A stretch of 64,000 nucleotides of DNA, taken from the IMG/VR virus record IMGVR_UViG_3300041964_000076, positions 1,498 to 65,497 of that record; one strand, 5' to 3'. Below, piece by piece: positions 7,839-42,363 of this stretch. A program made the translations under genes and the position numbers. The stretch is from a virus. The notes beneath the pieces were generated by a model. It was not told where the DNA came from, did no database searches, and saw only the letters and a program-made list of their open reading frames with translations. Position 1 is the first letter of the stretch. Every line of letters begins with the position of its first letter.

Positions 7839-9155
7839 CTAATAAGTGGCGTAAGAAACAGCGGCGATCGGTCTATGCCGTGCATTTTTCTTGTTTTTGA
7901 TCAGTGGCGATAGAGCGTATCTTCCAGAATCCCAACAGTGGTTAAACTTATCCACGATCGCAGGCAGTATGTCACCAGCGGCATTGGTCTTGTATTTATA
8001 CAGTCTGCATTCTTCAATGGTTTTAGGGCATTGCGGATGCACAATAATCTGATCGAAGTTTCTTAGAAAAGCAATCCCGTCCTCAACCGACCCTTGCCAC
8101 TTTTCAGCCCCAACCAGCTTAGGAATGCCCGTGCGTCTGACAAAGTTAATCGTGTCAGGTCTTGAGCTATCAGCCCTAACTACGTGCTGCTCAATGCCTG
8201 GAAGGTCGCGCATCCAACGATCGGCAATCTTGTCAAGTTCAAGACCGATCGCCCATGATTCGCGCTCAACATAAAGACGGCGATCGTTAATCCATAGCTT
8301 AATTGCTGCTGTTGGATCAGCAGCAAAGCCCCAGTCTCCACCAAAGTACGGCCCATCCCAATCGGGCATCGGCTCAAACTCATCAATCTTCCATTTGCCG
8401 CTGAGTACCTGTAGCTCAGATTTAACGTTATAGCCACCCATCCAAACGTGATGGTAATAATCAGGATCGCGTGCCCGGTCGATCGCCATTTCTTCGAGCG
8501 ACTCTTGTGGCAGCTTCGGATTGTCGCAGTAGTTCACTTCAACAACGATCGCACCCTTTGGTAAGCCTTCATCCCCTCTAAAAAACTGATCAACGGCATC
8601 CGTAGGTTGATCAGGGTTCCAAGTAAACCAAATCTCAGAACCAGGGGCACGAATGGTTGGACGCAGCAGGGAGAGCGATCGACCGCTTAAGTTTTGCGCT
8701 TCTTCTACCCAGGCAATGCCAAAGCCTTCTAATGACTTAATCGAGTCTGCTGTATGGTCTTGCATCCCCTGAAAGATGATGATGCCGTGTCCATCTTTGC
8801 GCCGGATCTCAGTCGTCAAGACTTCAAAAAGATGGGAGACTCCTAACGCTTGAATCTTGTTCTCAATCAGTGCTTTAGCCGAAAACTTCAGCGACTTCTG
8901 GATCTCACGGATGCACACCGATCGCAGGTTACTATCCTCAACCATTCTCTGAACCAAGCGCTCTGCAAAGTGGTGAGACTTGCCGCCTGATCTGCCACCG
9001 TGTGCCCCTTTGTAGCGAGAGGGGGCAAGTAGAGGCGATGCCCATTCAGGCACGTCAATTTCTAGCGTTTTTGAGATGTGGCTAGGTTGCTGTCGTCTGC
9101 GTTTGTCTCGCAGTCCCTTAAGCGTGTTGACTCGACTGATGATCGACAGGCTCAC
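7839..9155 (-). CDS. terL: Terminase large subunit, PBSX family
   Basis: Walker A GGRSGGKS, WVEEAQ Walker B, FTWNP, DWGFAADP and DKFNHCWDSGRYAL nuclease motifs. Confidence 0.95.
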   Translation of the reverse strand: MSLSIISRVNTLKGLRDKRRRQQPSHISKTLEIDVPEWASPLLAPSRYKGAHGGRSGGKSHHFAERLVQRMVEDSNLRSVCIREIQKSLKFSAKALIENKIQALGVSHLFEVLTTEIRRKDGHGIIIFQGMQDHTADSIKSLEGFGIAWVEEAQNLSGRSLSLLRPTIRAPGSEIWFTWNPDQPTDAVDQFFRGDEGLPKGAIVVEVNYCDNPKLPQESLEEMAIDRARDPDYYHHVWMGGYNVKSELQVLSGKWKIDEFEPMPDWDGPYFGGDWGFAADPTAAIKLWINDRRLYVERESWAIGLELDKIADRWMRDLPGIEQHVVRADSSRPDTINFVRRTGIPKLVGAEKWQGSVEDGIAFLRNFDQIIVHPQCPKTIEECRLYKYKTNAAGDILPAIVDKFNHCWDSGRYALSPLIKNKKNARHRPIAAVSYATY

Positions 9156-17500: not shown

Positions 17501-20500
17501 GATCGATGATGCGTCAGGTGCAGGGCTTAAGGCAGCGTCACTGGCACCCATGAAAGGTACAGCAGCAGTCGCAGCAGTGCCCCAATTAGCCAAGTTAAAA
17601 GAGCGCATTCAGACGCGTGTTGCCGTTAGCAACGATGCCAAAGCTTCAGGCGATGACTTAAAGCTCAAGCGCTGAATGTGGCTGGCATCTCTCGCAGCCT
17701 GAACAGCAAGCGGCAACAGATGCTAGAGCAGGTTGAGCAGCAAATCGGTAACGCGATCGATGCGCTCACGCTCACTCTGCAAAATCAGCCCGACCTGATT
17801 GACAATGCCAAAGTGAACCGCACGTTACAGCGGCTCAATGATATGACCGAACGCTTACTCGATGAGCGGACTGAAATCATTGATGATGTTTTTGAAACTG
17901 AGATGCGGCGGGCAAATGATGAGTTGCTAGCGATTGGAGCAAAGGCGCAGCAGAAAGTAGATAAAGCTCCCTGACGTTGGCTTGTTGGCAGACAGAGCGA
18001 TCGACAACCAAACGCAAGACCAGTCTCAAAAAGTCATCCGCGAGAATGAACCTGAGATCAGACAAAATCGCCGCAAAGCCTATCAGATGGAGCGCGAAGG
18101 TGGGGCAGTCGTTCAAGAACGGTTAAAAGTTCTCCCACCGTCAGAAGTGCAAGGCTTTGGTAGTGGGCTACTGAAGCAGGCAAAAAGCACTGTTAGCTGG
18201 CATCAATCAAGACATGAATACCGCTGTCCAAAAGCGGGTTGCTGTCTTGCTCACTGATGCTAAATCGCTATCCAATGACATTGAAACATCGCGCATTGTT
18301 GCCAAGGGGGAAGGCGACAAACAGCAAGCGAAAGCGTTAGGCAAGGTGGGCGGGCAAGCATCTAGCGCGATCGCGAAAGGCGATGCGATTCTGGCTAAAC
18401 CTCAAGCAAAGTTACGGGCAAGGATCTGGCTGAACTTAAAGCGGTTGAGCAAGCGCTCAAGAAAGTATACGCACAGGTCGATCGACCCTTGCCACCTGAC
18501 GCTGGTGGGTTTCGGCGGATTGGCTGCCAATGCGGGCGGTTTGCTCAATACGTTAAAGGGTCTGGGGCTTGGCTTTGCTGCTTTCCAGGGCTTGCAAGCG
18601 GCTGGGACTTTTCTCAAAGACTTCACCATGCGGTCTTTGGAAGCCGCTATGACGGTCGATCGGCTCAGAGTCGCTATGGATTACGCAGCAGGGGGAGCGG
18701 CTAAAGGTGGTGACGATTGGAAGTATGTGCAAAAAACGGTAGAAGACCTGAACACGCCTTTAGCGCAGTCACGCGAAGGTTTCAAACAACTAAGCGCTGC
18801 CACCAAGGGCACAAATGTGGACGGGGAAACAACCAGAAAGCTTAACACTGGTATTTCGCAAGCCTCTGTCGCTCTAGGAATGTCACCAGAACAGCAAGAA
18901 CGTGCTAACACCGCTATATCACAAATTGCGCAAAAAGGAAAGGCCCAAGCGGAGGAGTTAAGGGGTCAACTTTCAGAAACTGGCATTTCTTTCCAGTTGG
19001 TTGCCGACTCGATGGGCTTGACGACTTCCGAATTAAACAAGCAGTTGGAAACAGGCAGCGTACTTGCTGAAGATCTGCTACCTAAGCTTGCTGACAAACT
19101 ACAGCAAGAGTTTGGAGCGTCAGCGGTCAATGCCGCAGGCAACGCTCAGGGCGCACTCAACAAATTTAATAACTCTGTACTGACCACGCAAGAATCATTC
19201 GGCAAAATGATTCAGCCTGCACAGGTAGCGATTCTTAACACCTTGTCAGCCGTTCTTAAACCTTTGGGTGAAAACATTCAGTTAGTAGCGCTGATTGTCG
19301 GCGCTTTAACGGCTAGTTTCGCTGTTTTTGGCGTAGGGGCACTTGGTTCTATTGGTGTAGTGTCTACAGCGTGGAAAACAGCAACACTGGCAGCAGCAGC
19401 GGGCGGGAAGATGCTGCTAGCCTCAATGGGACCCATCGCTGCCGCCTTTGTGGCGCTTTACGCCACAATCGAAGTCGGGAAAAATGTCTTGACTCGCTTC
19501 ACCCCCTCTGACTTTGGCAAAGGTGTGATTGAGTCCTCTAACAAGATCGAAGAGAGTCTCACCAGAATTGCCAATAAAGCCGCGATCGCTCGTGGAGAGA
19601 TCAGTCAGATTACACCACCTAAGCGCCAATCGTCTGGCTGGATTGATGATCTTCAGGTGAAGTCAGATGAGTTTTTCAGTGGTGCAGCTAGCAAGGTTGG
19701 TATTAAGTGGCAGAACACCAACACAGCCGCAGAGGATCAAACCAAAAAAGATATAGAAGCGACTCAGAAGGCGGGCGAAACCGCTAAAAAGTTAGCCACG
19801 CAATTTGACAAAGAGTCCCTAGTCAACTCCCTGAATCAAACCAAGCAACGCGATGAAGACTTGAAGCGCTTAGGCTACAAAAAACAGGCATTGCAGGGTG
19901 CATTGACTCCAGACAAGCAGGCGATCGAGAAAGTTGATGTTGAAATTGCTGCGAAAACAGGCGATCGCAAAAAGGCGGCTGAAACTTTCAGCGATCGCTA
20001 TGGCGCTGTTTCTAGCGCCCTGAAAAATTACCAGGAGCAACTAGCGAAAGTTGACACTCTTGAAGTAGATGACAGCGTCAAAGAACAACTCAAAAAGCCT
20101 TTGCAAGAGTCGGTCACAGCGCTGAAAACTGCCAAAGAGGAGATGGATGGACTGCAAAAGTCGGTCGGCACAGTAGTCGATCCAACACAAAAACTGCTGT
20201 CAGCGTTTGAAGGAATTAACACAGCCCTAGAAGAAACAAGGCGTAAAGCCGATGCTGCTTTTGCTCAACGCACCTTAAAAATTAATACGGATCAACTGAC
20301 TGGGTTTAACAATGATATTGATGCTGGCGGCAAAGCAAATGTAGCTAAAGCGGAAGCAGAACGCGATCGACTCTCAGCCCAAGTTTCCGGCTCTCAAACT
20401 GCTATTAGCAAAACAAAAGAGCAGTTAAGTGATCCGATGGTGCAAGATATGCTGAAGTCGGTTACAACCACTTCAGGCGCAAGCATTACACCCGATTCAT

Positions 20501-23317
20501 CGATCGCCCAAATTGAAGACGCAAAAAAACGTCTTAGCGACAAAGACTCTGGTAAGAAAGACGTATTAGACCAACTCAAAGCGTACCGCGAACAGCGTGA
20601 TAAGTTGCCGGAACTGCAAGGGCAATTAGCAGGTTCTAAACTTCAGGTGAAGGAGGCAGGGCAGCAGCTAGTACTGACGCAGTTAGGACGGCAAACCGCT
20701 GATGATGAGAGCAAGGTCAAACGGACGGAAACCGATCGCAATGCCAAACTCAGGAGTCAACAGTCAGCGGTCAATGTCAAGCGATCGAAGAACCTTTTCT
20801 ACTCTGATGCTGATGCGGGTATTGCTGAAGCCGACCTGGGTATCAGACAGGCGGAATCACAGCGCACGTCTGCAACTACCAGAGAAGGCAATGTAGGGGC
20901 TAGCCTGAGGCGGATCAAGGAGTCATTTGATGCAGGCAAAATTAGCAAGGAGGAGTACGTTCGCCAAGAGCGCGAGCTGGGCGATCAGTTGGTGGAAGCG
21001 CGATCGAAATCGGCAGAGGCAGAAGCGCAAATTGAAGAGGCAAGAGCCAAGAAGTTTGAAGCCGTCAACCGTCGGCGTATCGAGAAGGTGCAAGAGTTAA
21101 ACGCTGATGAGGAATCCATACTCAAACGGCGCGAGACTTTAGCCAATGCCGGATTTAGTGCCAAGCAAGCCAGTCTGAGCATGGCAAAAGCAAGAACACG
21201 TTTTACAGTGAGGCTGATGCAGGAGTCGCTGAAGCTGGGCTGGGCGTTCAACGTGCTGCCAGCCAACAGCAGTTTGCAGGCGATCGCGCTGACTTGGTAG
21301 ACAAGCAGCTACAACGAGTACGGCAACTTTATAAGCAAGGTGCCATGTCTGCGTCAGAGTTCCACAAACAGGAACGCGACTTGATTGATCAGGCGACGGA
21401 CGCGAGAGCCAAAGGGACTGAAGCTGCTGCTGCCTAGAGGAGGCTTACGCCCGTAGAATTGAAGCCGTCAATCGTCAGCGGATTGAAAAAATCCAAGAGA
21501 TGAATGCTGATGAGGAGTCGATCCTCAAACGGCGCGAAAGCGTGGCGAATGCCAAATTCGTGGCACAGCAAGCGGGTCTGAGCATGGCAAAAGCCGAAGA
21601 ACTCTTTCTTTAGCGAAACCGAAGCCGGGGTTGCTGATGCTGATATTGGGCGTTCAGCGTGCTGTGAGTCAGCAACACAGTTGCAGCGATCGCACTGGAC
21701 TCCTTGAGAAGCAACTGCAACGAGAGCAGCAACTCTACAAACAAGGGGCAATGAGTGCGTCAGAGTTCCGCAAAAAAGAGCGCGATTTAGTAGACCAAAT
21801 TACAGAGGCACGCACTAAAGGGACGGAAGCGGCGGCGGCTCTAGAGGAGGCCGTATGCTCGTAAGGTTGAAGCGGCTAACCGTCAGAAGCTTGATCAGAT
21901 TGAACTGCTAAAGAAGAAGGCAGAAGCGGGCATTCAGCTTAAGTCCACTGACCAACAAACAGCGCTACAAACCAGCTTGCTGAGTAGCCCTGCGGCGGGC
22001 GAGCAAGAGCAGTCACAGGTAGCCCGATCGATCATCTTGATTGAGCAATCAGCTTCTACGGCTCGGATGGCGTTGAAGCAAAACGAGCTAGCACAGACGA
22101 AGCAACTGACAGCAGAGGGCGTGATCAGCGCCAAAGATGCGATCGAGAAAGAAATGCAACTCACTCAAGAACTGAGTGATATGAGACTGCAAGCGGCTCA
22201 ACGTGAAGTGCAGATGGCGCAAATGGTCAAGGACAGTCGCGCTAAATTGTTGACCGAATTGGCACGACTAGAGAATGAGCAGATCGATCGCTCCAAACAA
22301 CTACTTGATTCTCAGGCATCGCTTGCCAAGGCACAATCTGACCTGTCGATCGCCCGTAGTTCAACCCAACTGAATACCACCGATCGCGCCTTTGGGTTGA
22401 GAGAACGGCTTGAAACGGATAAAAATCTAAACCCTGAAGTGCGGGCAACGATCGAACGGCAGTTAGGGCAGTCGGGCTTTGGCGGGATGGATTCTACAGG
22501 CATCCTCAAACAAAGAGCGGCAATCGAGAATGATATTGCTGCCAAACAGGTAGCAGCACGTGAGACAGAGTTTGACTTTGCCCGCAAATCACTAGAAATT
22601 GATTTACGGAAACAGGAGATTGCCAACAAAACGCTGGCGATCGAGGCTCAGAAATACAAGCTAGACAGCGATCGCGCCAAGCTCCAAGCGATCAAGGATT
22701 ACAGCACGGCTCAGGCATCCGGCGACGAGTCAGGGATGCGGATGGCGGGCATGAGCCTTGATACTGCTGCCAATATGAGTAAGCTGGCTGACGCTCAACT
22801 GGCAGCCGCTCAAGAGAATATGGGCGTACAGAAACAAATTGCCGAAAACTCGCGCATTCAGCTTACTTTGAGCCAAGAAAAGATTCGCGAAGAGTTTGCA
22901 GGGCAAGACAGTATCAGGCGGCAAAACAATGAACTGAGCATCATTGAGCAAGCGGTAAAAGCCAAAACCCCTGCGAGAGCTTTGGGTGGACCCGTTAACG
23001 CTAGTCAGCCCTATCTCGTCGGCGAACGTGGACCCGAATTGTTCGTGCCTAAAGCAGGTGGGCAAATTTACAATGCCGATGATACTGCTAAAGTTTTCAG
23101 CGCCTCTGCTGCCACACCAACGATCGGGGGTAGCAGTAGTGGCTTCAGTGGGATGAATGGCAGTAGCGTCGATGCCAAGCTCGACAAGCTCATTAACGTA
23201 ATTGGAGCGGCTTTGGGTCGCCCACACCTCACAGTCAGCAGTCCTCAACCTGTCAACGATGCCGCTCGTATCTACTCAGAAATTAGTGCTCAACAAGTCT
23301 CTAACGCGAATATATAG
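14558..23317 (+). CDS. Tail tape measure protein, about 2900 aa when frames are joined
   Basis: Tape-measure domain (ISQIAQKGKAQAEELRGQLSE) at about 18650-19200; Ala/Gln-rich coiled coils; C-terminal GGPV...YLVGERGPELFVP; several frameshifts. Confidence 0.9.
20660..21900 (+). repeat. About 400-bp degenerate tandem coding repeat in the tape measure gene (about 3 copies)
   Basis: GCCGTCAA-starting units at 21061 and 21464, related unit at 21872; shared GCTGATGAGGA...CTCAAACGGCGCGA...CTGAGCATGGCAAAAGC. Confidence 0.8.
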
Positions 23318-24049: not shown

Positions 24050-25836
24050 TGGGAATTAACGCCACTGCCAGCAAGATCAGAATTTTAGTCGGTCCCGACG
24101 CGATCGACTTTAGCGAAGCGATCGTTAGTTTTGTGGCGGGTTTTGATAAGCGCGATCGTTCTGGGCAGTGCAAAGTCAGCGGGACACTGGTGCTGACAGC
24201 GCTGGATAACAACCTGGCTTTACTCAACCCTAGATTGAATTACGACATTGGCGGGGGCATTAACCCGCGGGCGCTGTGGAGTCGTGGTCAATTCATTCGC
24301 ATTCAGTCTACTGATGCGAGTGGCACCTTAATCGATCATCGGTTTAGTAAGCTTTATATCCTCAAAGAACCACTACCACCAAAATCACCCCAACCTCAAG
24401 ACGCGCGGATCACGTTAGAACTTGGCTGCGAGTTAAAGCTACGCGATTTTGCAGCACCGAATCCTAATCCCGTACTGGCGTGCGACCCTGAAGATCCAAC
24501 ACTTTCTCATGTGGGTATTGAGCAAAGCCCTAGCGAAGTGATCCGTAAATTACTGGTAAAAGCAGGGGTGACGGGCACCTGGGAAGGCGTGATTGAAAAC
24601 TATCCATTCTCCTACCCTGTTTCTAACGACAGTGGCAGCTATTTAGCTGTGGCAGGGGAAGTCGCGTTTGCACGGTTCTACTCATTGGTGCAAAAGCGAT
24701 CGACGGCAGGCAATATCACCGCTGTAGACTATCGCGCTACTGCCGATGCCACACCACTGCTGACAGTGACGATCGGGGAAGACGAGGCTGAATATGAACC
24801 CGTCTCAGGGCAAGAAACACCGTGCGAAGCGTTGCACTGTGAAGGCTCTACTTATGATGTGACAGATACATGGCAGGATGTGACGTTCTGCAAGGTTTTC
24901 TACGCCCCTGGCTCTAACTTGGTCACACGGTTAACGTGTACGAGAGACGCACAGAGCGCTACTGAGATCTTGCATGAGGTGACAGAGTTAGAACCACGCG
25001 GACTGTTAGCGCCAGACGATTTCCCTGGCAGTGATTCGCTCATCTTCAGTCGTCGCACAACGAATATCAAAACCTACGAGGCTAATGTTTGCGGCAACGG
25101 CAAGCTGCTGCAAGAAGAGACGATCATCGTCCGTCCGTTTCGTGTCGCCGTCAGCGAGTTCTGGAGTGGGCTGAGTACGGCTCAGAAAGCCAATTATGCT
25201 GCTTTTAGTCCGTCAATCGACACTCGCACGATCGTTTATTACAGCTACACCGAAAAAGAAGTAATCAAAGAGATTGAAAGCCGTACTAGCCGGATGCTGG
25301 CAAGTGTACTACCCAGTGTCGATCCAACGACCGCAGGCGTAATTTTTCAAGTGCCTGCTGCTAGCGAAATTCAGACCTACCGTGAAATCTGCCCAGGACA
25401 ATGGGAGTACACGCAAGCATCAGCTTCACCACTGGTTGATGTTTACCCTGATGCGGTGCCTGATAGCGCGTCAGTCAGCGAGAAAATTAGGTTAGCAACA
25501 ACTGACCCAATCTCAACTGTTTCCGCTAGTGGGCAGAACAATCCGCCTGCTACCGAGAGAAGACCACAGCGCTATGCCCGTAACGAACGGCAGTTAGAGG
25601 GTGTGGCACTCTTTGGTAGCTTTGCAGGCGCGAATCAACAAGATCGTAAGCGCTTCGTTTCAATCCCCTGGATGGTCAGCAATGAGCAGGCAAGCGCGAT
25701 CGCTCAACACTTAGGCGCTGAACTAATTGGACGCAGACAAGGGGCACAAATCCTTTTAGCCTTAACTGATGTTTGGCTGACCAATGAGAACCCTTATCCA
25801 GTCATTCACGTCAGAGAAGCCGCGTCTGGTGTTTGA
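24049..25836 (+). CDS. Baseplate hub/tail tip protein (probably continues by frameshift into the LamG region)
   Basis: Large ORF after Dit; the frame can be extended through 25860-26280. Confidence 0.55.
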   Translation: MGINATASKIRILVGPDAIDFSEAIVSFVAGFDKRDRSGQCKVSGTLVLTALDNNLALLNPRLNYDIGGGINPRALWSRGQFIRIQSTDASGTLIDHRFSKLYILKEPLPPKSPQPQDARITLELGCELKLRDFAAPNPNPVLACDPEDPTLSHVGIEQSPSEVIRKLLVKAGVTGTWEGVIENYPFSYPVSNDSGSYLAVAGEVAFARFYSLVQKRSTAGNITAVDYRATADATPLLTVTIGEDEAEYEPVSGQETPCEALHCEGSTYDVTDTWQDVTFCKVFYAPGSNLVTRLTCTRDAQSATEILHEVTELEPRGLLAPDDFPGSDSLIFSRRTTNIKTYEANVCGNGKLLQEETIIVRPFRVAVSEFWSGLSTAQKANYAAFSPSIDTRTIVYYSYTEKEVIKEIESRTSRMLASVLPSVDPTTAGVIFQVPAASEIQTYREICPGQWEYTQASASPLVDVYPDAVPDSASVSEKIRLATTDPISTVSASGQNNPPATERRPQRYARNERQLEGVALFGSFAGANQQDRKRFVSIPWMVSNEQASAIAQHLGAELIGRRQGAQILLALTDVWLTNENPYPVIHVREAASGV

Positions 25837-26005
25837 GGGTGGGGAAATGACGGTGGTGCATGACACGATCGTTTATCAGGTTGATGCACTCAGTTTTGAG
25901 CACGATCGCACTCGCGCTACGGTCGGGTTGTGAGTTGATCTGGCTGGCAACCATTCCCGCAGGGCGCAACAGTGCCAGTGCTGCCTTATGTGCCGACCGT
26001 CATGC

Positions 26006-26300
26006 GATCGGGTGTGGCACCTGTACTCAGTCTGAGCGGTGTTGCAGGTGAGTTTGGATCACTCGATCACGCGATCGGGTGTGGCACCATTAATCAAACT
26101 GTTTGCTCGAGCGGAACAGGGGCAACAACGATCATCCGCTCGGGCGTAGCACCTGTACTCAATCTCTCTGCTTTGAGTGGTGACTATACCTTGCCTGTCA
26201 TTCCGCTCGGTGTAGCACCTGTACTCAGATTGAGTGCTTTAGGTGGTAGTCGAATGCTTCAGTCGAGCGATCGGGTGTAGCACCAGTGATGAATTTGAGC
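26006..26300 (+). repeat. Five about 66-bp spaced coding repeats (RSGVAPV-like)
   Basis: CGATCGGGTGT(G/A)GCACC variants at about 26006, 26072, 26136, 26204, 26269. Confidence 0.75.
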
Positions 26301-27017
26301 ACTTTGACGGCGCAGATTGGTGCGCTGCCTTCCGGTGCTCAACCTTCCGCCTACTGGAACCTAATCGCAAACGGTAACACTGCTGTGGGTACACCCAACC
26401 TCACGGCTGGGTCAGGGGTATCCTTCGCCAGTGGCACCCATGCAGCGCTTAATGGAAGCACTAGCGCCACGCTTGCAGGGGCAGATACGGCAGACATTAG
26501 CGTGGGTAACGAAGCCTTCACGATCGGCGCTTGGGTTTATCTCAATAGCACAGCCTCTCTTCTTGCCTTCATGCAAAAAGGCTTGGGCGGGTCGGGCAGC
26601 AATTATACGGGTGCTGTGTTTGAGTATCTTGTTTACTACGATCAGAGCGCCTTACGCTTTAGGGGTGCCTTGTATGACACGACTTCGCTTAATAGCTCCG
26701 GAGTTGCGATTGTTACGGCTTCAACCTTTGGCGCTCCAGCGATCAACACTTGGTATTACCTTGTGTTCTACTACAAGCCTGGATCGCCCAATACGATTGG
26801 GCTGAGCGTGAACAATGGTGCGTTTAATACGCTCACGACCACAATCAATCATGTTGACACGGCTACCAACATGACGCTTGGTTATCGTTCTAGTGATAAC
26901 TTCAATCTCAATGGCAGGATGAGGTATGCAGGATTCTGGAAAGATCTACCAGCCGATGCTGGAGGAAGTATCGATCTTGCCTATTACTACAACGGGGGAG
27001 CTGGTCGTCCCTTGTAG
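26286..27017 (+). CDS. LamG/concanavalin A-like domain tail protein (candidate receptor-binding)
   Basis: AFTIGAWVY...INTWYYLVF...GLSVNNG...LNGRMRYAGFW LamG-like pattern. Confidence 0.8.
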   Translation: MMNLSTLTAQIGALPSGAQPSAYWNLIANGNTAVGTPNLTAGSGVSFASGTHAALNGSTSATLAGADTADISVGNEAFTIGAWVYLNSTASLLAFMQKGLGGSGSNYTGAVFEYLVYYDQSALRFRGALYDTTSLNSSGVAIVTASTFGAPAINTWYYLVFYYKPGSPNTIGLSVNNGAFNTLTTTINHVDTATNMTLGYRSSDNFNLNGRMRYAGFWKDLPADAGGSIDLAYYYNGGAGRPL

Positions 27018-28093
27018 CGGACAAAATGACGCTCTACTGTCCAGTAGAACAACCAGCCAACAACAACGGCAAAAACCATCGCAAGAGCAAAAAGCATAAG
27101 GGGGTTGCGGTAGCCGATCGTCATGGCAATCGCTTTCCAGCAAGCGAAAACAGGATAATGCACCAAGTAAAGCGAGTAGCTAAACGACCCTAGCCAAATG
27201 AGCCAACGTGAACCAAAAAAGCCTTCTAGCCAAGTTGGTTGCGTTCTGTCGACGCTCAGTTGAAAAAGGCAGGCTAACAACAATCCCGTCACCAGATCAA
27301 ATTCCCAATATCGATTAAGGTGATCTCCAAAGAACAGCAAGCCGCTCAACTCGTTGCGATCGCCCATGATGGGAAAAGCCCAGAACAGGCACAGCAAAAG
27401 GGTAGCAGCAAACCAAGCAAAAGCTTTTGGCTCTGGCAATGCTTTTTGTGACGCGAGAAAGCTAAGTGCAAAGATGCAAAAAAACCAAAGCCCTAAAAGC
27501 CATCCGTTAAAGTACCAATTCAGCCAGCAAGCCAAACCGCTGACAGCAATGGCGAACAAAAGTACAGCTTGAGATCCGAAGCGGCGGTGCAACCATACCA
27601 GCACAGGGAAGAGCAGATAAATTCTAAGTTCTAGTGCCACTGTCCAAAGTGGACCTGTCTCCAGGGTTTCATCAACAAAGACATCATTAAGTAACAGTAA
27701 GTTGAATAGCATTTGTCTCTGGTCTGGTAGCCAGTCGATACCCAAAACCTGAAACCGCAAGGCGGCAAGCGCGATCGCCAATAGCGTCAGCGCATAAACA
27801 GGGGGCACAATGCGCCAGAAGCGTCGTTTGAGGAACGGTAGCACCAGGAATGGTCGATCGGGTTTGACTTGTAAACCAAGCGTGAAGCCACTGATAGCGA
27901 TAAAAATAGTGACAGCCAAATGCCCGTAACCCAGTACGTGAATGAGTGGGTAAACAAAGCCAGTCGGGTTGCGTTGTAAGAATGAAGCGCTGGCATGGCA
28001 AGCGGCAACATAGAGAGCGCAAAAGCCGCGTATTCCGTCAAGATAAGGTAGTCTCACAAAAGAAGTCAGAAAGACACCCTCATCATGCCCCAT
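26987..28093 (-). CDS. Acyltransferase family 3 (OafA-like) O-acyltransferase
   Basis: LDGIRGFCALYVAACH, FIAISGF, FLKRRFWRIVP, LWTVALELRIY, LGSFSYSLYLVH; many TM helices. Confidence 0.92.
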   Translation of the reverse strand: MGHDEGVFLTSFVRLPYLDGIRGFCALYVAACHASASFLQRNPTGFVYPLIHVLGYGHLAVTIFIAISGFTLGLQVKPDRPFLVLPFLKRRFWRIVPPVYALTLLAIALAALRFQVLGIDWLPDQRQMLFNLLLLNDVFVDETLETGPLWTVALELRIYLLFPVLVWLHRRFGSQAVLLFAIAVSGLACWLNWYFNGWLLGLWFFCIFALSFLASQKALPEPKAFAWFAATLLLCLFWAFPIMGDRNELSGLLFFGDHLNRYWEFDLVTGLLLACLFQLSVDRTQPTWLEGFFGSRWLIWLGSFSYSLYLVHYPVFACWKAIAMTIGYRNPLMLFALAMVFAVVVGWLFYWTVERHFVRYKGRPAPPL

Positions 28094-28152: not shown

Positions 28153-28740
28153 CTAGCGACAAAGCCGTATCTTTGTAGCAGTAGCGCTTTCCGATCGCGC
28201 CAACTCATCCTTAAACTTTTGCTGCTTCTGCTCATCCAATAAACCGGATGCTGCATCTTTCGCCGCCTGCACACTTCTCTTATTCGACTGATCGACTTCT
28301 GCCGTTGCCTGTCCACAAGTCCAGGGGTAGCCTTTCAGGTAAACCATAGCGGCGATCGCGGCTATAGCAGGGCAAGGGCGATCGAGCCACCGATAACGAG
28401 TGAGTTTTGTTTTGCGACATTTTTGGTTTAGCCTAGCAGTCGCAAGGGCGATCGGCAAGAATCAAGAGTTAAGAGCAGTTTTAACTTCCTGTAAGACCTC
28501 AAAATAATCTGGAGAACTTAAGGCTTCCGGTTTGGCTGCCAATCCGCTAACGAAACGATCCAACGCTTTTACTTCTGCACTATCCAGCGTCACGCTCTCT
28601 AAAAAGTTCTGTTTGGCGACGGAGGCTAATTCGTCAATGCCGACTTCTTGACTTATCGCCAAAGCAGAATTAAGAACGATCGCGCTACCAGTTCTAAGTT
28701 TGACAGTTTTCGCTGAACTAGACATTTTAACCACGCTCAT
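28153..28740 (-). CDS. Two small hypothetical proteins upstream of the acyltransferase (one membrane-anchored)
   Basis: ORFs 28462-28740 and 28153-28458, co-oriented with the acyltransferase. Confidence 0.4.
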
Positions 28741-28765
28741 AAAAAATCAACCATAACATAGACCT

Positions 28766-28909
28766 ATGAGTACAGATGTCACAGCACTTTTAGAAGCGAG
28801 ATCGCAGGCACGGTCAGAGCGCAACTGGGCAGAAGCCGATCGCTTGCGTAAACTGATTGAGGATCAGGGCTATCAAGTCGTCGATCGCAAGACGGCACCA
28901 GCGAACTGA
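28766..28909 (+). CDS. Stand-alone CysRS C-terminal (anticodon-binding)-like domain
   Basis: MSTDVTALLEARSQARSERNWAEADRLRKLIEDQGYQVVDRK, and DGTSELK after a 1-nt shift; below the ORF-track size cutoff. Confidence 0.65.
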   Translation: MSTDVTALLEARSQARSERNWAEADRLRKLIEDQGYQVVDRKTAPAN

Positions 28910-29219
28910 AGGGAGGGCAAACACCGTCAGTCGTGAGCGATCGACCGCATCAAGACTCAAACCACAGTCAGGGTGTTGACGCCGATGGTAGTCTTTGGGG
29001 CTATGCTCTCAGCACATGGATAGTGCCAAAAAGCGATCGGTGAGAGCTTGCCGGATCAATGATGTCAGAAGCCAATCAATAGACACTATCAGAGCGATCG
29101 CACAACATCGCGCCAACTGTCGGGCTATGTGCCTTCTTTGCGGGACGCAGCCACCGATACAGTATTGATTCAATACACTTGACAGGTGGCACAATATAGG
29201 CATTGTCACTACTCTTCCC

Positions 29220-29870
29220 ATGCCTCCAGTTATTCCCAATCGCCTCTCATTGGATTTTCTCACAGCTTACCTGCCTAATGCCACGACGATCGACGCTCAC
29301 CTGTTGACTGCTGCCCCGGCTGAAACAGCAAGCACAGGAGCCGATTTAAGCATTGTCTCTGGCGGTAACTACACTTCTAAAAACTTTACCCTCACTGCAC
29401 CGTCTGCGGATGGCTCAGGGGCAAAGACAGTGCCCAGCGTTACCTCACTGAACTGGACAGGGCTATTCGCTGGCGCGGCAACTGCGATCACTCACATCGG
29501 CTTTACCAAACGTGCAGGGGGTAGTTATGCCTCTTCTGATCCTTTTGTTGATGCGATCGAACTAACGGCGGACACAACGATCGCGTCAGTCACAACCGCA
29601 ACCGGGTCGCCCATATCAGCACGACAAACAGCTTTGCAGCGCTGACTGCTGGCAAACCATCACGGGCACTGGTATCCCCTCAGAAACAACGATTCTGGCA
29701 ATTCCAACCAGTACAACGATCGTCCTATCCAAACGTGCAACGGCATCGGGCACCGTCACGGTTACGATTAAAACCCCGTCATCCTACACGCCACCAACGT
29801 CTTCTAATGGTGCGTCTGACTTCGCTTTTACGTTTCCTGCTTACCTACTCAAACTTGATGATTACCTGTA
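29220..29870 (+). CDS. Putative tail structural protein (frameshifted)
   Basis: Thr/Ala/Ser-rich, LLTAAP...GGNY motif typical of phage tail proteins. Confidence 0.5.
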
Positions 29871-33958: not shown

Positions 33959-34435
33959 ATGATACCTAAATTTAGTACGGCAGGCTGTATATACTCAAAA
34001 CACTGCCTTTCCAAGACTGGATACCCTGTTAAGACCTTTCAGCGTAAAGTTCAAAAAATTAGTCGTCTTGTTTTAGCAGAAAAACTCGGTAGACCGATAA
34101 AAGACGGAATGGTTGCTTGTCATACTTGTGATAACAGGGCTTGTGTGAATGCAGAGCATTTGTACGAAGGCACTCGAAAACAAAATATACATGATGCTAT
34201 GGAACGAGCAGGAATGCAGCAAGGCTCTAAAAACCATCAAGCAAAACTCAATGAAACGCTAGCCGTATTTGCGGCACACAGACTGCGAGAAGGAAAATCC
34301 GTTTTTGAAGTTGCGGATATGCTTAATGTTGCGCCTTCTACTATAAGTTCCATAAAATCTGGTCGAACATGGGCTAAACACACAGGTTTAAAAGAAGGGG
34401 ATTTGCCTGATAGACGACGTTTGCGCAGTCGTTAA
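33959..34435 (+). CDS. HNH homing endonuclease with C-terminal HTH
   Basis: ACHTCDNRACVNAEHLYEGTRKQNIHD. Confidence 0.88.
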   Translation: MIPKFSTAGCIYSKHCLSKTGYPVKTFQRKVQKISRLVLAEKLGRPIKDGMVACHTCDNRACVNAEHLYEGTRKQNIHDAMERAGMQQGSKNHQAKLNETLAVFAAHRLREGKSVFEVADMLNVAPSTISSIKSGRTWAKHTGLKEGDLPDRRRLRSR

Positions 34436-34515
34436 TTCAAAAGGTTGTACGGCGAATGATTTGATGATTAAGCTGGACATTAGTAAAACAAGTGCTTACA
34501 AGAAAATGAAAAAAT

Positions 34516-35136
34516 ATGTCTGACAAAATTCTCTCTGTCCCTTTCATGGTTCAAAACGATAACGATCTTTGGAGTGGTGTTCACGGCAGCGTTCAATGCT
34601 GCCCTACTGCTAACGCCATGCTAGCGGCGACCCTGGACAAGGATATGATACCGTTAGCGAAGAAGAACGGCTTTAGAGAGCCTGAGAGTTACTACAAGAG
34701 TAAGTTTCAACCATTGGGCTATAGTGCCGCAGACAGAGGCAACCACGACGCTCACACCAGAGTTTTAGAGTCAGCCTTCGGCATCAAATCACAATGGCGT
34801 ACTGACATCACTAGTAAAGACATCGTGCGATCGCTTGATGCTGACATCCCTATAGTGGTCGGCTTTGAGTATAAATATTCTGGGCATATATGCATTATTA
34901 CTGGCTACTACAGCAGCGAGGGTGGTGGTTTGTATGTCCATGACCCTTATGGACTCAGGGCAGGGTCGGACAACTATTACCACTACATCAACCCTGGTTA
35001 CGGTGATCAATCAGGCAAGCACGATCGCTACAGTTGGGGCTTGCTGAATCACGTTCTGTTTGAGCGTGGCACACCCAATAGAGGCGGCTGGGGTCGATGG
35101 GTTACGAGCGTAGCAGGGAAGCCCACAGGCTTGTAG
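34516..35136 (+). CDS. C39-like peptidase, probable endolysin
   Basis: QCCPTANAML (Cys), GHICIITGY (His), VHDPYG (Asp) papain-like triad. Confidence 0.78.
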   Translation: MSDKILSVPFMVQNDNDLWSGVHGSVQCCPTANAMLAATLDKDMIPLAKKNGFREPESYYKSKFQPLGYSAADRGNHDAHTRVLESAFGIKSQWRTDITSKDIVRSLDADIPIVVGFEYKYSGHICIITGYYSSEGGGLYVHDPYGLRAGSDNYYHYINPGYGDQSGKHDRYSWGLLNHVLFERGTPNRGGWGRWVTSVAGKPTGL

Positions 35137-35481: not shown

Positions 35482-36190
35482 ATGACTAGGATATACAGAA
35501 AACCGACTGAATCGATCGGTGAAGTTTTTGGCAGCTAACAGTTTTAGGCATCGCAGGCAGAGATCACGCAGGGTTTGCGATCGCGGCTTGCCTTTGTGAA
35601 TGCGGTAAGAGGCACCAGACAAGGCTTAACAGCTTGAGAACGAATAAAGCTTTATCTTGCGGGTGTCTAGCAAGACGAAATCCATCTGCTAGTGACAAGA
35701 TTGTGACTCCGAATCATGGTTTTTCAGTAAAAGATCATTCGAGTCTGGAATATTTGACTTACATAAGCTGGAAAGCGCTTAGGCACAGATGTCAAAGATA
35801 GGCATTCAAATACAGAAGCATTATGGCTCTAGAGGCATTGAAGTCTGATTCCAGAGTGGAATAGCTTTCCTCATTTTTAGCTGACATGGGATTGCGCCCC
35901 AAGCAAAGCGCATCTGGAATCGATCGTGCTGATGTGAACGGAAATTACGAGCCTAGCAACTGCGACTGGGGCTACAGCGAAAGAGCAGGCGCCAGAACAA
36001 GCGGAACACGCGATGGCTCACCCTTTCAGGCAGAACGCGTTTGTCCTTAGCGCCGTGGGCTGAAGAATAGGTTTTCCAAGAGAAGTTCTTAAAGATAGGC
36101 TGGGTCGATTGGGCTGGAGTGTTGAAAGAGCTTTGACAGAGCCAGTCATGAAACAAAACAGGAAACGCATAACGCCCCCTAGTTTTACTC
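35482..36190 (+). CDS. HNH homing endonuclease (frameshifted, end approximate)
   Basis: CLCECGK...LSCGCL; SFLADMGLRP...IDRADVNGNYEPSNC; GWSVERALTEP. Confidence 0.75.
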
Positions 36191-37985
36191 TGTTGGGGAA
36201 CTACCACTTGGTTCTTGCCCTGCCTTTTTGCCTGCTCATAGCCGCATCAGCAGGCAGCCATCAGTTTCAGCTAGTGTCCTGCCACTCGTTGGATACATTG
36301 CAACCCCGATCGATGCGTCACCTGCCTAAGCATGGAGCCTCCGTAAGCCAGGTTGATTGCTGAGATTGCCTGTCGCAGTGCCTCAGCTTTGGCGATCGCG
36401 CTTGCCTCTGTGCAATCAACCAAAAGCACCACAATTTCATCGCCCCCTTTGCGTACTGGAACGTCCCCGTTACGGCAGTTATCTAGAAGAACACGCCCGA
36501 TATTCTGAAGCACAAAATCGCCAGCGGCATCGGATACTTCCTTGTTATACTGCCCGAAGCCGTCAGCATCAACGAATAAAAGCGCTAGCTGATAGCTATT
36601 GCGATCAGCTTTAGCGACTTCACGCGGGAACGTTTCGGCTAGATAAATATTGTTGAAAAGTCCAGTCAGATGATCACGAACTAGCATTTCCTGAGCTGCT
36701 TTGCGATCGCTCAGTGCGCTCAACGCCTGCCCTAACTGTTGCCCCACAATCTCAGCAATCTCGATTTCGACATTGGTCAAGGGACGATCGCGCCTCAAGT
36801 GCAACACGCCTAGAGTCTGTGTCTCGCGTCCGTAGAGAACAGAGGCACGCATAGATGGGAACCGCTCACAGGTTTGTGTAGATGTTCGCAGACCATTTCA
36901 GTTTCTTGATCCTCGCAGTAATGCACTTTCGCTTCTTTGAGCGATCGGCATTCATTCGGCATGAATCCCGCTTTGCTGCCTGCATCACTGCCCCAACTAA
37001 AGCGCCGCTCTGCGTACGATCGTGAGTTATCAATCAGAAAAGTTCGCCTGCCAGATAGGGGAAGAGTTTGCGACCCGCAACCCGCACAACATCGCCTGCC
37101 TCTTGGTAGGAGTCGCAAAGGTTGAGGCGTACTGATAACTCTGAGATCAAGTTGAGGTTCAAAACCATCAACGAGAGTCGGGTTTCTTTCTCGCGTAACT
37201 TTTCGTTGGCAGCAATCAATTTGCCTTGGGCGATTTGTTGATCGGTCACATCCAGACTAAAACCGCCGATGCATAACTCGTTGGTGTGTGGATCTGTAAA
37301 CCGAAACTTGCGGGTGTAATATTCTCGCGGCTGCCCTGTGGCATCTGGCACTACCTCAATAAATTCTGCCTCGCCGTTTTCCGCCACTAGGCGATCGTTC
37401 TGCAAGATTCTCGCTGCCTGTTCCTCATCTTTGAGAAAGTTGGTGTCATTCAGCCCAATCACTGACGATGCGGGTCGTGCGATCGCACGTTCACACGCCG
37501 GTTGAGCCAGATCATGGTCGAGTCACTAGCCCGCTTGCAGTAGATGGGGTAGGGCGATGAATCAATGAATAGATCACGAATGAGCTGATGCTGCTCAAGC
37601 CCTGCCTGATTCGCCTGAGATGATTGAACGAGCGCGATCGCCTGTGCTGCGAAGGGGGCAACCAGAGTGCTGCTACTAGAGAGACGATCGCGGTTACTGC
37701 CTTAGCTCGCTACAGACAGGCTGTACAGGGGCAAGAAGACGGTAATGACCTCGGCAATGTGCGAGATGCCACAGCAGACGATAAAGGCGCAAAACAGCCC
37801 AATGATTTGATAGAAGCGAAGGGGAACGCCTGCGAGTGAAACAGTTGCCGTGAGTAGTACAGGAGTGAGAGCGGGATAGCGAAGTAGGCGATCGCAATCA
37901 GCACGTCACTGCCGACTAACGACCAAAGTAGATAGGGATTCCAGTTGAAGCAATAACCGTGAGGCACCCAGGAGAAATGATCCAT
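36180..37985 (-). CDS. Diguanylate cyclase-like sensor: ethylene-binding TM domain, PAS, GAF, GGDEF (frames joined)
   Basis: PHGYCFNW...SDVLIAIAYFAIP; FIVCCGISH (37759-37776); KAVTAIVS; PAS/PAC LDVTDQQ; GAF; DHLTGLFN, RNGD I-site, GGDEI. Confidence 0.85.
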
Positions 37986-38723
37986 TAGCAACCAGCCGTG
38001 GCAGCACCGTACAAATGCCCTTGCACTAACAGTTGTAAGTTTGGAAAATGCCTTGCCAGAGCGATCGCCCTCGCTTCAATTGCTCCCGATTCCAGATGCT
38101 CTAGCACAATCGGTATGTCACGCCGATGAGCGATCGCCATTGCCCCAAACACAACGCATTCGCGCCAATGGTCGCGGCCATCAGTCGCACGATCGAGCCG
38201 TCAACTTCAAGAAATCAGGCTCGATCGCCAAGATCGCTGGAATGTTGGCATAACCTACGCCAAAGTCGTCAATGCCGATTGGTAAGCGTAGCTCACGCAG
38301 GGCACTCAAAACCTGCGTCGAAGGTAACATTAGTGCCTCTGTTTCGGTCACTTCACAGTATAAAAGCCGTGGATTGATGCCGCTCTTGTTGAGTTGCTCC
38401 GTCATGAAAGACGGAAACTGCAAGTCATTCAAACTTTGCCCACTCAGGTTGATTGCGTGCGGTATAGACGAGTGCTGCAAACGCTCCAGAGTGCCAACTA
38501 CAGCAGCGCGATCGATCGCCTTTAGCTGCTCAGGAGTTACGTCATTGATGAATCTTGCCGCCGGGATTATCTCGCCAGACGGCTCCCTCAGTCTGACTAA
38601 AACCTCAAACACGTAAGGGATTTCAACCCCAATTTTGAAAATGGGCTGACAGTGAAAGATCAGACTACCAGAGTCGATCGCCTGATCAATGCGCGATCGC
38701 CATTGCATGGATGTGTTCGGCAC
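37985..38723 (-). CDS. Stand-alone EAL c-di-GMP phosphodiesterase (C-terminus across frameshifts)
   Basis: QPI, EVLVR, INLS, EVTE, IDDFGVGY, K-DG, VLEHLE, VQGHLY; its TAA overlaps the DGC ATG. Confidence 0.9.
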
Positions 38724-38829
38724 AGTGACTAGCGTTCAGGATAAGTCCATCTTAGTCCCTGTGATGGAAGGGGCTGATGTTATGGGGCGATCGACTTCCT
38801 TTCTGTCTCACTTTATTTCTGCTGAAACC

Positions 38830-39455: not shown

Positions 39456-40121
39456 AAGATTGAAGGGGCGATCGCCCTTCTCACAAATCAAACTGTCCAA
39501 ACGTTGCACACTGCCTAGAATAGAAGCAGTGGGGTGTAGCCATTGGCACAATTGTTTGGTGATAACGTCCAAAATGGAAACTCCTAAACCCGAAAAGAAA
39601 GAGCAGTGCTTAGAGGACTCCTTGGCAGACGAAAAGCAGAAAGAGTTGCTTCTGCGTTCGGGACAGTTTTTATTAGTCACTGGAGCGCCGAATATCGCGG
39701 CGAGATCCCTGCCACGCCTGGAGTCGTGCATAACTTATTTGCATGTCCAATCAAACCAGCAGCAGCCAAAATCCTGTTGGCAGAAGGATTTAAGCCTATT
39801 GGAGGCGCATTACCAACCCACACGATTAAGTGCAATACGGCGCTTCTTCGTGACTCGTACAATCCTCGTGGTCTCTTCGATCTCTTTTTTGATCTCTCGG
39901 ACTTTCCGCCGAATGATGGACTTTGGATCACGATCGAAACGTGCAAAAGATTGAAAAGCGACTGTTTACCTGCACTGAAAAAGCGTTGCTGATTCGGTGC
40001 AGATCTGAAAACGAGTTCCGTGGTGCTGTGATAACGAGACGATCGACATTGCTTGGCTGGATGATGGCAGCCGTTGCTTGGCACTGACGATCGCAGAGTA
40101 TCGCAAAAAGGTCGGCATCCA

Positions 40122-40577
40122 ATGAAGCAAACCGCAGGCTTCACCTTGATAGAGCAGTTGTCTGTGATCCTCATCATCACAATTTTGGCAGCGATCGCTC
40201 TACCTGCATTGTTCAATCAAGTCCGTAAAGCGCAGTCAAAACAGGCGGATGCCGACATTTCAGCAATGAAGACAGAAATCATTGAATGGTATCAGAAGAA
40301 CGATCGCTTCCCACATGATGTGCAACCCAATGTCGCTCCAGAAAACAACAGCGTACCCAGTTTTAAGGTGCAACCAGATACGCCTAACGATAGCCCCTAT
40401 GACTACGATCACCACTGCTTGCAAAAGCCAGAGGATGATTTTAAGACACGGTTTGTACGGGTCGTGTGGTTTGGCTGGGACAAGAAGCGGCAACACAACC
40501 ACGAGAACACGACAATTAAAGATGTTGGGGATGATGTTGTGATTACTGTGTCGGAATCTGAACAGTGCCCTCCGTGA
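40122..40577 (+). CDS. Type IV pilin/pseudopilin (class III signal peptide)
   Basis: MKQTAG|FTLIEQLSVILIITILAAIALP: PilD cleavage site, E5, hydrophobic helix; two C-terminal Cys. Confidence 0.9.
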   Translation: MKQTAGFTLIEQLSVILIITILAAIALPALFNQVRKAQSKQADADISAMKTEIIEWYQKNDRFPHDVQPNVAPENNSVPSFKVQPDTPNDSPYDYDHHCLQKPEDDFKTRFVRVVWFGWDKKRQHNHENTTIKDVGDDVVITVSESEQCPP

Positions 40578-41361: not shown

Positions 41362-41934
41362 TTAACGGCGCTTTGGTGGCTTGAAGAAGTCTTTCTTTTT
41401 AATCTTCACCATGCGCCCGTCTGGATGGTGCCACACGATGCCTTCAATCTCTCGATCGTTCAAGTATTCTTTAAGCCCTTCAAAATCTGTAGGTACAGCT
41501 TCTTTGATGATCACGCCGTCATGTGGCACTAGCACATGGCTAACAAACTTTTCAGGGTTGCCTTGCACCTTGGGTCCGCACAGTTCATAAGTACCGTTCT
41601 TGAGCGGTTGACTGAAAGCATCAACACCGCGATCGTATGCCTCTCTAAACCATTGATCCTCTTTTCCATCGCCAACGGGTAGCCATCCTGGATGATGCCC
41701 TGTCACTGGATCAGGTTCTTGAGCAGGTTCAAAACCTTCAGGTGGTGTCTTACCTGCTTTTGCGTCGTACCGCTTATACAGTTTACCGTCTCGCATCATG
41801 CAACAAGTGCCATCAAACTTGCGAGTAGCAACGCCTTCGCCTGCCTGTACCCATTCACTGCCTTCTACGACTTCGTTGCAAACTAGGCGATCGCCGTCAT
41901 AGTTACGCTGAAACAAAGAAATGATTTTTTTCAT
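41362..41934 (-). CDS. RNA ligase, DUF5565/RLIG1-like nucleotidyltransferase
   Basis: ATRKFDGT (motif I KxDG), TYELCGP, IEGIVW, MVKIKKKDF; own RBS AGGAG before ATG 41934. Confidence 0.75.
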   Translation of the reverse strand: MKKIISLFQRNYDGDRLVCNEVVEGSEWVQAGEGVATRKFDGTCCMMRDGKLYKRYDAKAGKTPPEGFEPAQEPDPVTGHHPGWLPVGDGKEDQWFREAYDRGVDAFSQPLKNGTYELCGPKVQGNPEKFVSHVLVPHDGVIIKEAVPTDFEGLKEYLNDREIEGIVWHHPDGRMVKIKKKDFFKPPKRR

Positions 41935-41944
41935 AATTCTCCTA

Positions 41945-42363
41945 CCTTTTAGAAACACGTTTGACCGTCCTGGCTTTGCGTTTGCGTGCCGGACGCTTAG
42001 AGACTTTTTTGCGGGTATCAACGCCGATCGCAGCCTCTTCACAAACCCTGCCTGATTCCGATTTCCTAACTCTGGGTTCTTAGCATTCCATACCCAATTT
42101 TGTGGGGCGTGCGCCTCTTTGTGATGCTTGAGGCAGAGGGGGAAGCAGTCGATTAAGGGGCGTTCACTACCTGCAATGCTTACCCACTTCCCACCGTCCC
42201 AGACACCGTATCTCACATGATGCACTTGTCTAGCCTTGCATCGGCACAACGTACACTTGCCACCCGTCGCCTGAAATGTGGCAGTGCGTATTGAGTGCCA
42301 ATTAGGGGCGTAACGATGGGGGAAGGCTTGTTTGTGCAAGGCGGTGCGATCGCTGCAACTCAT
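41945..42363 (-). CDS. HNH endonuclease (CxxC...HH...CxxxH)
   Basis: KCTLC...QVHHVRY...PLCLKHHKEAH. Confidence 0.75.

Follow-up and report, generated by a model that had tools for sequence, protein, structure and literature searches.

The window examined here is a 64,000-nucleotide stretch (bases 1498–65497) of the IMG/VR virus record IMGVR_UViG_3300041964_000076, which is 107,563 bases long in total and 91% complete according to CheckV. On its minus strand lies a sensor gene in which an ethylene-binding domain (EBD), of the type known from the plant receptor ETR1, is followed by PAS, GAF and GGDEF domains. It is preceded by a stand-alone EAL gene whose stop codon overlaps the ATG of the sensor gene by one base (TAATG). 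In this assembly each of the two genes is split over all three frames (translation table 11, minus strand). We nevertheless consider it probable, at roughly two chances in three, that together they make up a functional two-gene cyclic di-GMP (c-di-GMP) module, and not a pseudogene, and that this module is cargo of a tailed phage whose hosts are HIP1-rich biocrust cyanobacteria. What carries this reading is that intact copies of the gene exist in the population, that purifying selection on it is strong, that it is located in a phage, that its domains can be placed in their families and that the critical residues are conserved.

The locus had first been picked out by a reading of the sequence alone, which placed the gene correctly, on the minus strand with its start at 37985. 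The strings from which that sequence-only reading had pieced together the N-terminus are all present: one frame contains both MDHFSWVPHGYCFNW...SDVLIAIAYFAIP and KAVTAIVS, and another contains FIVCCGISH, which falls between them. When the stop-to-stop pieces were scanned separately against Pfam, ETR1_N (PF25487; cut-off 27 bits) was detected in two adjacent pieces (31.4 and 32.5 bits), together with PAS_4 (29.6 bits), a weak GAF tail and GGDEF (84.7 bits); a read-through of the window's own genome gave 40.6 bits for ETR1_N. An intact sister protein of 606 residues (P0006) matches the same series of families with ETR1_N at 78.1, PAS_4 at 42.6, GAF at 25.5, GAF_2 at 24.9 and GGDEF at 138.5 bits, so that the proposed order of PAS, GAF and GGDEF domains behind the EBD is borne out both in the window pieces and in the intact protein. 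By eye the GAF domain is without the canonical bilin-binding Cys-His motif, and a cyanobacteriochrome is not claimed. An AF2 model of the whole protein from the single sequence reached a pLDDT of only 37 and was useless. The features are collected in Table 1.

Table 1. Features of the locus and of the surrounding phage genome (window positions unless a contig is named).
Feature	Position	Strand	Remarks
Sensor gene, ETR1_N-PAS-GAF-GGDEF	36190..37985	-	~600 codons; ATG at 37985; 3' end approximate (36190-36200)
Ethylene-binding-type domain (EBD), residues 1-135	37582..37985	-	three predicted transmembrane helices; N-terminal PHGxC..W motif
PAS domain, residues ~142-250	37238..37563	-	PAS_4; long helical linker after it
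GAF domain, residues ~300-424	36718..37090	-	GAF/GAF_2 in P0006; weak tail match in window piece
GGDEF domain, window type	36200..36684	-	DADGFGQYNK, RNGD (I-site), GGDEI
GGDEF domain, sister type	L002:11307-11821		counterpart of window 36200-36684
Stand-alone EAL gene	37985..38708	-	241 codons; just upstream of sensor gene
Terminator-like hairpin then T-run	36159..36181	-	directly after sensor gene; consensus scan only
One-base indel sites, sensor gene	36234, 36254, 36267, 36316, 36836, 37041, 37500, 37654, 37708, 37825		ten in this assembly
One-base indel sites, EAL gene	38177, 38208		two in this assembly
Terminase, large	7839-9155		left of sensor/EAL genes
Tape measure	18214-21300		left of sensor/EAL genes; 1028 codons, frame open
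Family-3 O-acyltransferase	26987-28093	-	PHROG, 112 bits; cargo gene, strand opposite structural genes
RLIG1-like RNA ligase	41362-42363	-	Pfam, 45 bits; cargo gene, strand opposite structural genes

The protein cluster of P0006 was found by a word-index search. This protein is encoded on a 36 kb contig from JGI (sample 3300018906, contig Ga0193609_1000063, hereafter L002) and on a 44 kb contig from ENA (sample ERZ27286105, contig k141_13729, hereafter L003), and on both an intact 241-residue EAL gene precedes the sensor gene with the one-base overlap. The DNA of the window and of L002 is 93.6% identical over 36683–38778 and differs there by eight one-base indels and no others. Compared with the intact sister, the sensor gene shows 62 synonymous and 2 non-synonymous differences in 430 codons and the EAL gene 46 and 5 in 239, that is, 108 synonymous against 7 non-synonymous for both genes. 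Decay accompanied by at least eight indels would have left tens of non-synonymous changes, and the small number found thus indicates that the frames have been under purifying selection essentially to the present.

Independent reads and assemblies agree with this. Logan short-read contigs from four biocrust metagenome runs of two studies carry the corrected letter at all eight sites defined by L002, and also reveal four more indels in the 3' part of the window's own GGDEF region (36234, 36254, 36267 and 36316); correction of the ten sensor sites, an X standing for every inserted base, gives an open frame of about 600 codons. A second JGI assembly (21,455 bases, encoding P0002) is 100% identical to the window in the PAS region and reads through its breaks at 37825, 37708 and 37500, with a break of its own near 37126 that is absent in the window. 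Indels of the same kind affect the tail-fibre gene of the window (25829–26255), an essential gene with an intact 988-residue counterpart in L002 and L003, as well as three small genes (28402–29653) that are likewise intact there; further sites lie at 28362–29018, 29614–29653 and 39958–40018, the small intact counterparts in L002 and L003 measuring 88, 108 and 217 residues. On the evidence of these sequences we attribute the indels to assembly noise and do not take the window copy for a pseudogene, as the sequence-only reading had presumed when it joined the frames. A residual doubt of about 5% is left because the short-read contigs derive from close relatives (2–10% different, the same strain not being demonstrated).

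The competing view takes the frameshifts as real and the window copy as a decaying, non-functional remnant of a host gene. It could draw on the density of the breaks, at least 12 one-base indels within 2.5 kb of the record, and on their uneven distribution, since they cluster regionally while the terminase and the 1028-codon tape-measure genes are open. Set against the excess of synonymous differences, the intact copies on sister contigs, the corrected short-read contigs from two studies at every break site, the different set of indels in a near-identical second assembly and an essential tail-fibre gene hit in the same manner, we regard such decay as very improbable. A practical consequence is that this IMG/VR record carries clustered one-base indels, and gene calls from it are not to be taken for pseudogenes.

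The flanks of the module are phage on both sides, and not host chromosome. To the left are terminase, tape-measure and other tail proteins, the O-acyltransferase, a Phage_ABA_S protein, an HNH endonuclease and a C39-like peptidase, the last two of these belonging to the lysis region; to the right follow the RNA-ligase-like gene, a DNA methyltransferase and a Dda-like helicase. The tail/lysis block lies on one side of the sensor and EAL genes and the replication block on the other, and the two genes run against their neighbours on the opposite strand. The operon recurs, with its phage synteny unchanged, on the independent contigs from JGI and ENA. Phage flanks, the opposite strand, a swapped GGDEF domain (see below) and a differing adjacent lysis cassette among relatives are together the marks of a phage cargo gene.

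Some indication of the host comes from the octamer HIP1 (GCGATCGC), whose enrichment is a hallmark of many cyanobacteria. It occurs in 93 evenly distributed copies in the 64 kb, where about one would be expected by chance (about 95-fold enrichment), which points to a cyanobacterial host, and all metagenomes with matching DNA are biocrust metagenomes. The host-like density of HIP1, along with a domain architecture typical of cyanobacterial chromosomes, could also be taken to mean that host chromosome was mis-joined into a viral contig. This we find barely credible, given that HIP1 is equally dense along the whole phage, that phage genes lie on both sides, that the synteny is the same in at least three independent assemblies and that similar DNA was present in 0 of the 401 cyanobacterial genomes sampled. 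A search of the phage for tRNA genes found none, and a scan of genome contigs yielded only distant homologues of the sensor (at most 35% identical).

The N-terminal domain was examined by profile, alignment and fold. The ETR1_N match of P0006 spans profile positions 2–96 of 97, and an exhaustive phmmer search with residues 1–135 against 1.84 billion representatives gave 6,903 related clusters, the nearest only 51% identical, so that the phage EBD, though divergent, clearly belongs to a very large family. In alignments with 150 relatives the phage protein keeps the family residue at every invariant or near-invariant column (P8, H9, G10, C12, W15, D27, Y34, I37, P38, F65, F68, I69, C72, G73, H76, Y88, K95, T98, A99 and S102), and the window copy carries the same critical EBD residues. 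An AF2 model built on the 150-sequence alignment (pLDDT 91) consists of three long helices (17–51, 56–84 and 88–134). Used as a Foldseek query against the Swiss-Prot models, it retrieved plant ethylene receptors as all of the top 26 matches, after which the E-value jumps to 0.85. ETR1 residues 13–132 align to phage residues 15–133 with 30% identity and a TM-score of 0.72. The PDB holds no EBD structure, and the sole matches there were chance ones to a G-protein-coupled receptor.

In this register D27, Y34, I37, P38, I69, C72 and H76 fall on ETR1 D25, Y32, I35, P36, I62, C65 and H69, and K95 falls on K91. Wang et al. are said to have listed Y32, I35, P36 and I62 among the ethylene-binding residues of ETR1 in 2006. 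The D25-equivalent column of our alignment contains Asp in 141 and Asn in 8 of 152 sequences, the same proportions as published for the family (about 94% Asp and 4% Asn). The binding of ethylene depends on seven residues, C65 and H69 holding the Cu(I) ion in ETR1, D25 tuning the affinity and K91 bridging to D25 (PMC10266040, PMC11819568, PMC6682694). Judged by profile match, modelled fold and critical residues, among them the equivalents of D25, Y32, C65 and H69 that the sequence-only reading had singled out, the three-helix domain is a genuine EBD of the ETR1 type.

The output side of the sensor exists in two versions. The GGDEF domains of the window and of the sisters are only about 40% identical and show no similarity at the DNA level, while the 435 residues before them are 99.5% identical. 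A near-identical sensor part in front of dissimilar GGDEF DNA indicates that the output domain was exchanged by recombination at the GAF–GGDEF junction, with a breakpoint placed by the alignment near 36683. In the 21,455-base JGI assembly an N-terminus of the window type is joined to the other type of GGDEF domain. Both types match the GGDEF profile (PF00990) and align well to solved cyclases (PleD, WspR, DosC and others), both keep the guanine-binding Asn/Asp, and both have an I-site RxxD five residues upstream of the signature (RNGD in the window, RGED in the sister).

The EAL domain (PF00563) scores 94.5 bits in the window and 114.9 bits in its intact homologue. The motifs EVL..R, NLS, EVTE, DDFG and KVD align with PA0861, and EHLE and QG were read from the sequence. 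The protein is a bare domain with its catalytic motifs kept and is predicted to be a phosphodiesterase. A complex prediction for the EAL protein with the GGDEF domain scored 0.02, which gives no verdict and counts neither way. In our reading a constitutive phosphodiesterase would be co-produced with a ligand-gated GGDEF protein that makes c-di-GMP, perhaps weakly, or binds it and modulates its partner.

A number of observations weigh against a working module in a cyanobacterial host. A consensus scan found no promoter-like site on the minus strand and a tyrosine integrase search of the phage found no integrase; the 401 sampled cyanobacterial genomes share only short motifs with the region (the pilin N-terminus and EBD helix 2), and the host species was not found among them. 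The EBD departs from its family by W84F, T105A, P114A and five extra residues inserted in the loop that joins helices 1 and 2, it scores 78 bits against 133–150 bits for cyanobacterial chromosomal copies, and its identity to other clusters does not exceed 51%. Neither GGDEF type carries the signature GG(D/E)EF. The sister type reads RGED-VVARL-HGDEL behind a complete DIDHFKRIND...GD, and the window type reads RNGD-VPVRK-GGDEI together with DADGFGQYNK...GD, in which the Lys of DxFK and the Asp after the Asn are replaced. The window-type motifs, GGDEI included, are repeated in an independent short-read variant and are therefore not errors. With a non-canonical signature in both variants, the GGDEF domain may not make c-di-GMP. 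The description of the protein as a diguanylate cyclase in the sequence-only reading accordingly stands for the GGDEF fold, the profile match and the RxxD site, but cyclase activity is uncertain, given GGDEI, the missing DxFK Lys and HGDEL in the sisters.

These departures bear on two alternatives. In the first, the three-helix domain would not sense ethylene here and would serve for copper or redox sensing, for another small ligand, or simply as a membrane anchor or dimeriser. Besides the divergence of the EBD, one can point to the lysis genes adjoining the operon and to the Maribacter phage protein gp63 (described below), whose ETR1_N gene lies directly upstream of an amidase and may indicate a different role in phages. 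However, each of the seven residues for ethylene binding is conserved, as is the equivalent of Lys91, selection on the sensor is very strong (2 non-synonymous differences in 430 codons), the domain is fused to PAS, GAF and GGDEF just as in cellular sensors, and the sensor operon is convergent with the lysis genes and outside their operon. A non-ethylene role is on this evidence distinctly unlikely.

The second alternative concerns the output and deserves somewhat more weight, unlikely as we still hold it to be. The GGDEF domain would be catalytically dead and act through RxxD as a ligand-gated c-di-GMP-binding regulator that controls the EAL protein or serves as a sink, the module mainly lowering c-di-GMP. 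The motifs just described would fit, RxxD being kept in both types, as would the swapping of GGDEF types about 40% identical behind an almost identical sensor, the translational coupling of an EAL gene with its catalytic residues kept, and the 15 places, 6 of them non-synonymous, at which window-type variants differ. On the other side, the Mg-binding Asp/Glu and the guanine-binding Asn/Asp are retained, and AGDEF and SGDEF variants are known to be active.

If the two genes form the functional module that we favour, it could work as follows. The first gene would supply a sensor-less EAL phosphodiesterase and the second, translationally coupled to it, a membrane sensor that inserts as a dimer into the membrane of the infected or lysogenised cell. 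The Cu(I) held by C72 and H76 with D27 would bind ethylene or some small unsaturated ligand similar to it, and the signal would reach the GGDEF domain via PAS, coiled coil and GAF; its output together with the EAL enzyme would reset the c-di-GMP level of the host. Such a shift might change pilus-based motility, the production of sheath and exopolysaccharide, and aggregation. The parts of this scheme that we infer are which ligand is bound, whether the non-canonical GGDEF domain is catalytically competent and what the physiological effect is.

Ethylene arises from sunlight acting on organic matter, from plants and from microbes. A bolder proposal, which we put forward only tentatively and consider doubtful on balance, is that this lineage of biocrust cyanophages reads an environmental gas through a working ethylene receptor and uses c-di-GMP to steer the motility, sheath and pilus display of the host to its own benefit. 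If true, it would be the first case in prokaryotes of a virus encoding a receptor for a gaseous signal. The very strong purifying selection on the phage copy implies that, in soil crusts, the signal is of importance while a cell is infected or lysogenic. To specialists, a phage with a working gas receptor would come as a surprise; as counterweights, cells commonly have this architecture, the cyclase motif is degenerate and the evidence comes from sequence and models.

The novelty lies in the carrier, a phage, and not in the architecture, which is ordinary in bacteria, including a cyanobacterial chromosome. The nearest 149 EBD clusters comprise 72 with kinase output, 21 with GGDEF and 9 with EAL. 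The same domain order and the same EBD residues are found in a 648-residue open reading frame of Chroococcopsis gigantea SAG 12.99 (L018:6001-7944) and in Hydrocarboniphaga WP_299692133.1, annotated as 'sensor domain-containing diguanylate cyclase'. The phage protein is about 32% identical to such cellular ETR1_N-PAS-GAF-GGDEF sensors overall and at most 51% within the EBD, and the cellular copies score 115–150 bits for ETR1_N against 78 for the phage copy. Unlike them, it has a stand-alone EAL partner, a non-canonical GGDEF motif and a phage genome around it. Word-index protein searches with the PAS piece and the EBD returned only its own cluster and one 42%-identical kinase. The nearest relative of the EBD (P0158, 51% identical; ETR1_N-PAS-GGDEF, 455 residues) is found on ENA contigs L095–L097, where its gene adjoins an integrase-bearing element and sulphur-carrier genes (Rhodanese, TusA, DsrE). 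The location is a cellular genome, at the margin of an integrated element.

Among characterised receptors, SynEtr1 (Slr1212/UirS) of Synechocystis PCC 6803 and AzoEtr1 of Azospirillum brasilense have a Cu-dependent three-helix EBD with the seven binding residues in common with the phage protein. In contrast to the latter, with its GGDEF output, EAL partner, phage location and an ethylene binding that is predicted only, they are chromosomal and have histidine-kinase-type outputs. Ethylene alters cell-surface properties, phototaxis and biofilm formation in their hosts (PMC6682694, PMC11819568). It was only recently demonstrated, with SynEtr1 and AzoEtr1, that ethylene receptors of bacteria are functional. 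Compared with ETR1 of Arabidopsis (P49333), in which D25, Y32, I35, P36, I62, C65, H69 and K91 all have equivalents in the phage protein (PMC10266040), the latter has the bacterial-type N-terminus PHGxC..W where ETR1 has the Cys4/Cys6 disulphide pair, the insertion of five residues in the helix 1–2 loop and different output domains.

In the literature searched we found no paper describing an ethylene-binding domain in a phage, and to this extent the statement of the sequence-only reading that no phage example had been described holds. Unannotated examples do exist. The protein gp63 of Maribacter phage Colly_1 (QQO97348.1, 289 residues, 'hypothetical protein'; MT732450.1 36821-37690; L014:2890-3759) matches ETR1_N with 59.9 bits, and the same gene is found in the cultured Maribacter phages Molly_1-5. 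It lies directly upstream of an N-acetylmuramoyl-L-alanine amidase (endolysin), its helix-1 Pro is replaced by Ser and its C-terminal 160 residues match no family. An IMG/VR motif scan further found a stand-alone ETR1_N protein of about 190 residues (49.5 bits) in IMGVR_UViG_3300025916_000243 (L098:1-585), a contig of 24 kb on which an SU10-type portal gene lies near it. Like the window protein, these are above the Pfam cut-off and lie in phage genomes; unlike it, they are short and without a recognised output domain or c-di-GMP output.

Phage interference with host c-di-GMP is documented, for example by peptides binding the cyclase YfiN (PMC8085984). One motif scan detected eight GGDEF-domain genes on other IMG/VR viral contigs, and none of the other phage or plasmid c-di-GMP cargo genes found has an EBD sensor or a coupled EAL partner. 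Viral contigs searched with the PAS piece contained no related locus, and with P0006 only unrelated GGDEF domains.

Taken with the Maribacter phage proteins, a gas-sensing module in this phage would, if true, make ethylene-receptor domains a recurrent phage tool. The unannotated ETR1_N proteins of cultured phages are open to bench study now, the sensor/EAL pair offers a compact, testable system for asking what the EBD senses, and the two GGDEF outputs that nature has exchanged behind a single sensor amount to a ready-made experiment on signal output.

Two further observations concern the neighbourhood of the operon. The lysis region beside it varies among the relatives, with the HNH endonuclease and C39-like peptidase at 33959–35136 in the window and a GH19 glycosidase and DUF5662 in L002 (L002:12056-13634) and L003. 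About 1.4 kb from the EAL gene, on the plus strand (40122–40577), there is a prepilin-type (N_methyl) pilin-like gene with a counterpart at L002:8135-8563, and no part of the region other than its N-terminal helix has matching DNA in many cyanobacterial genomes.

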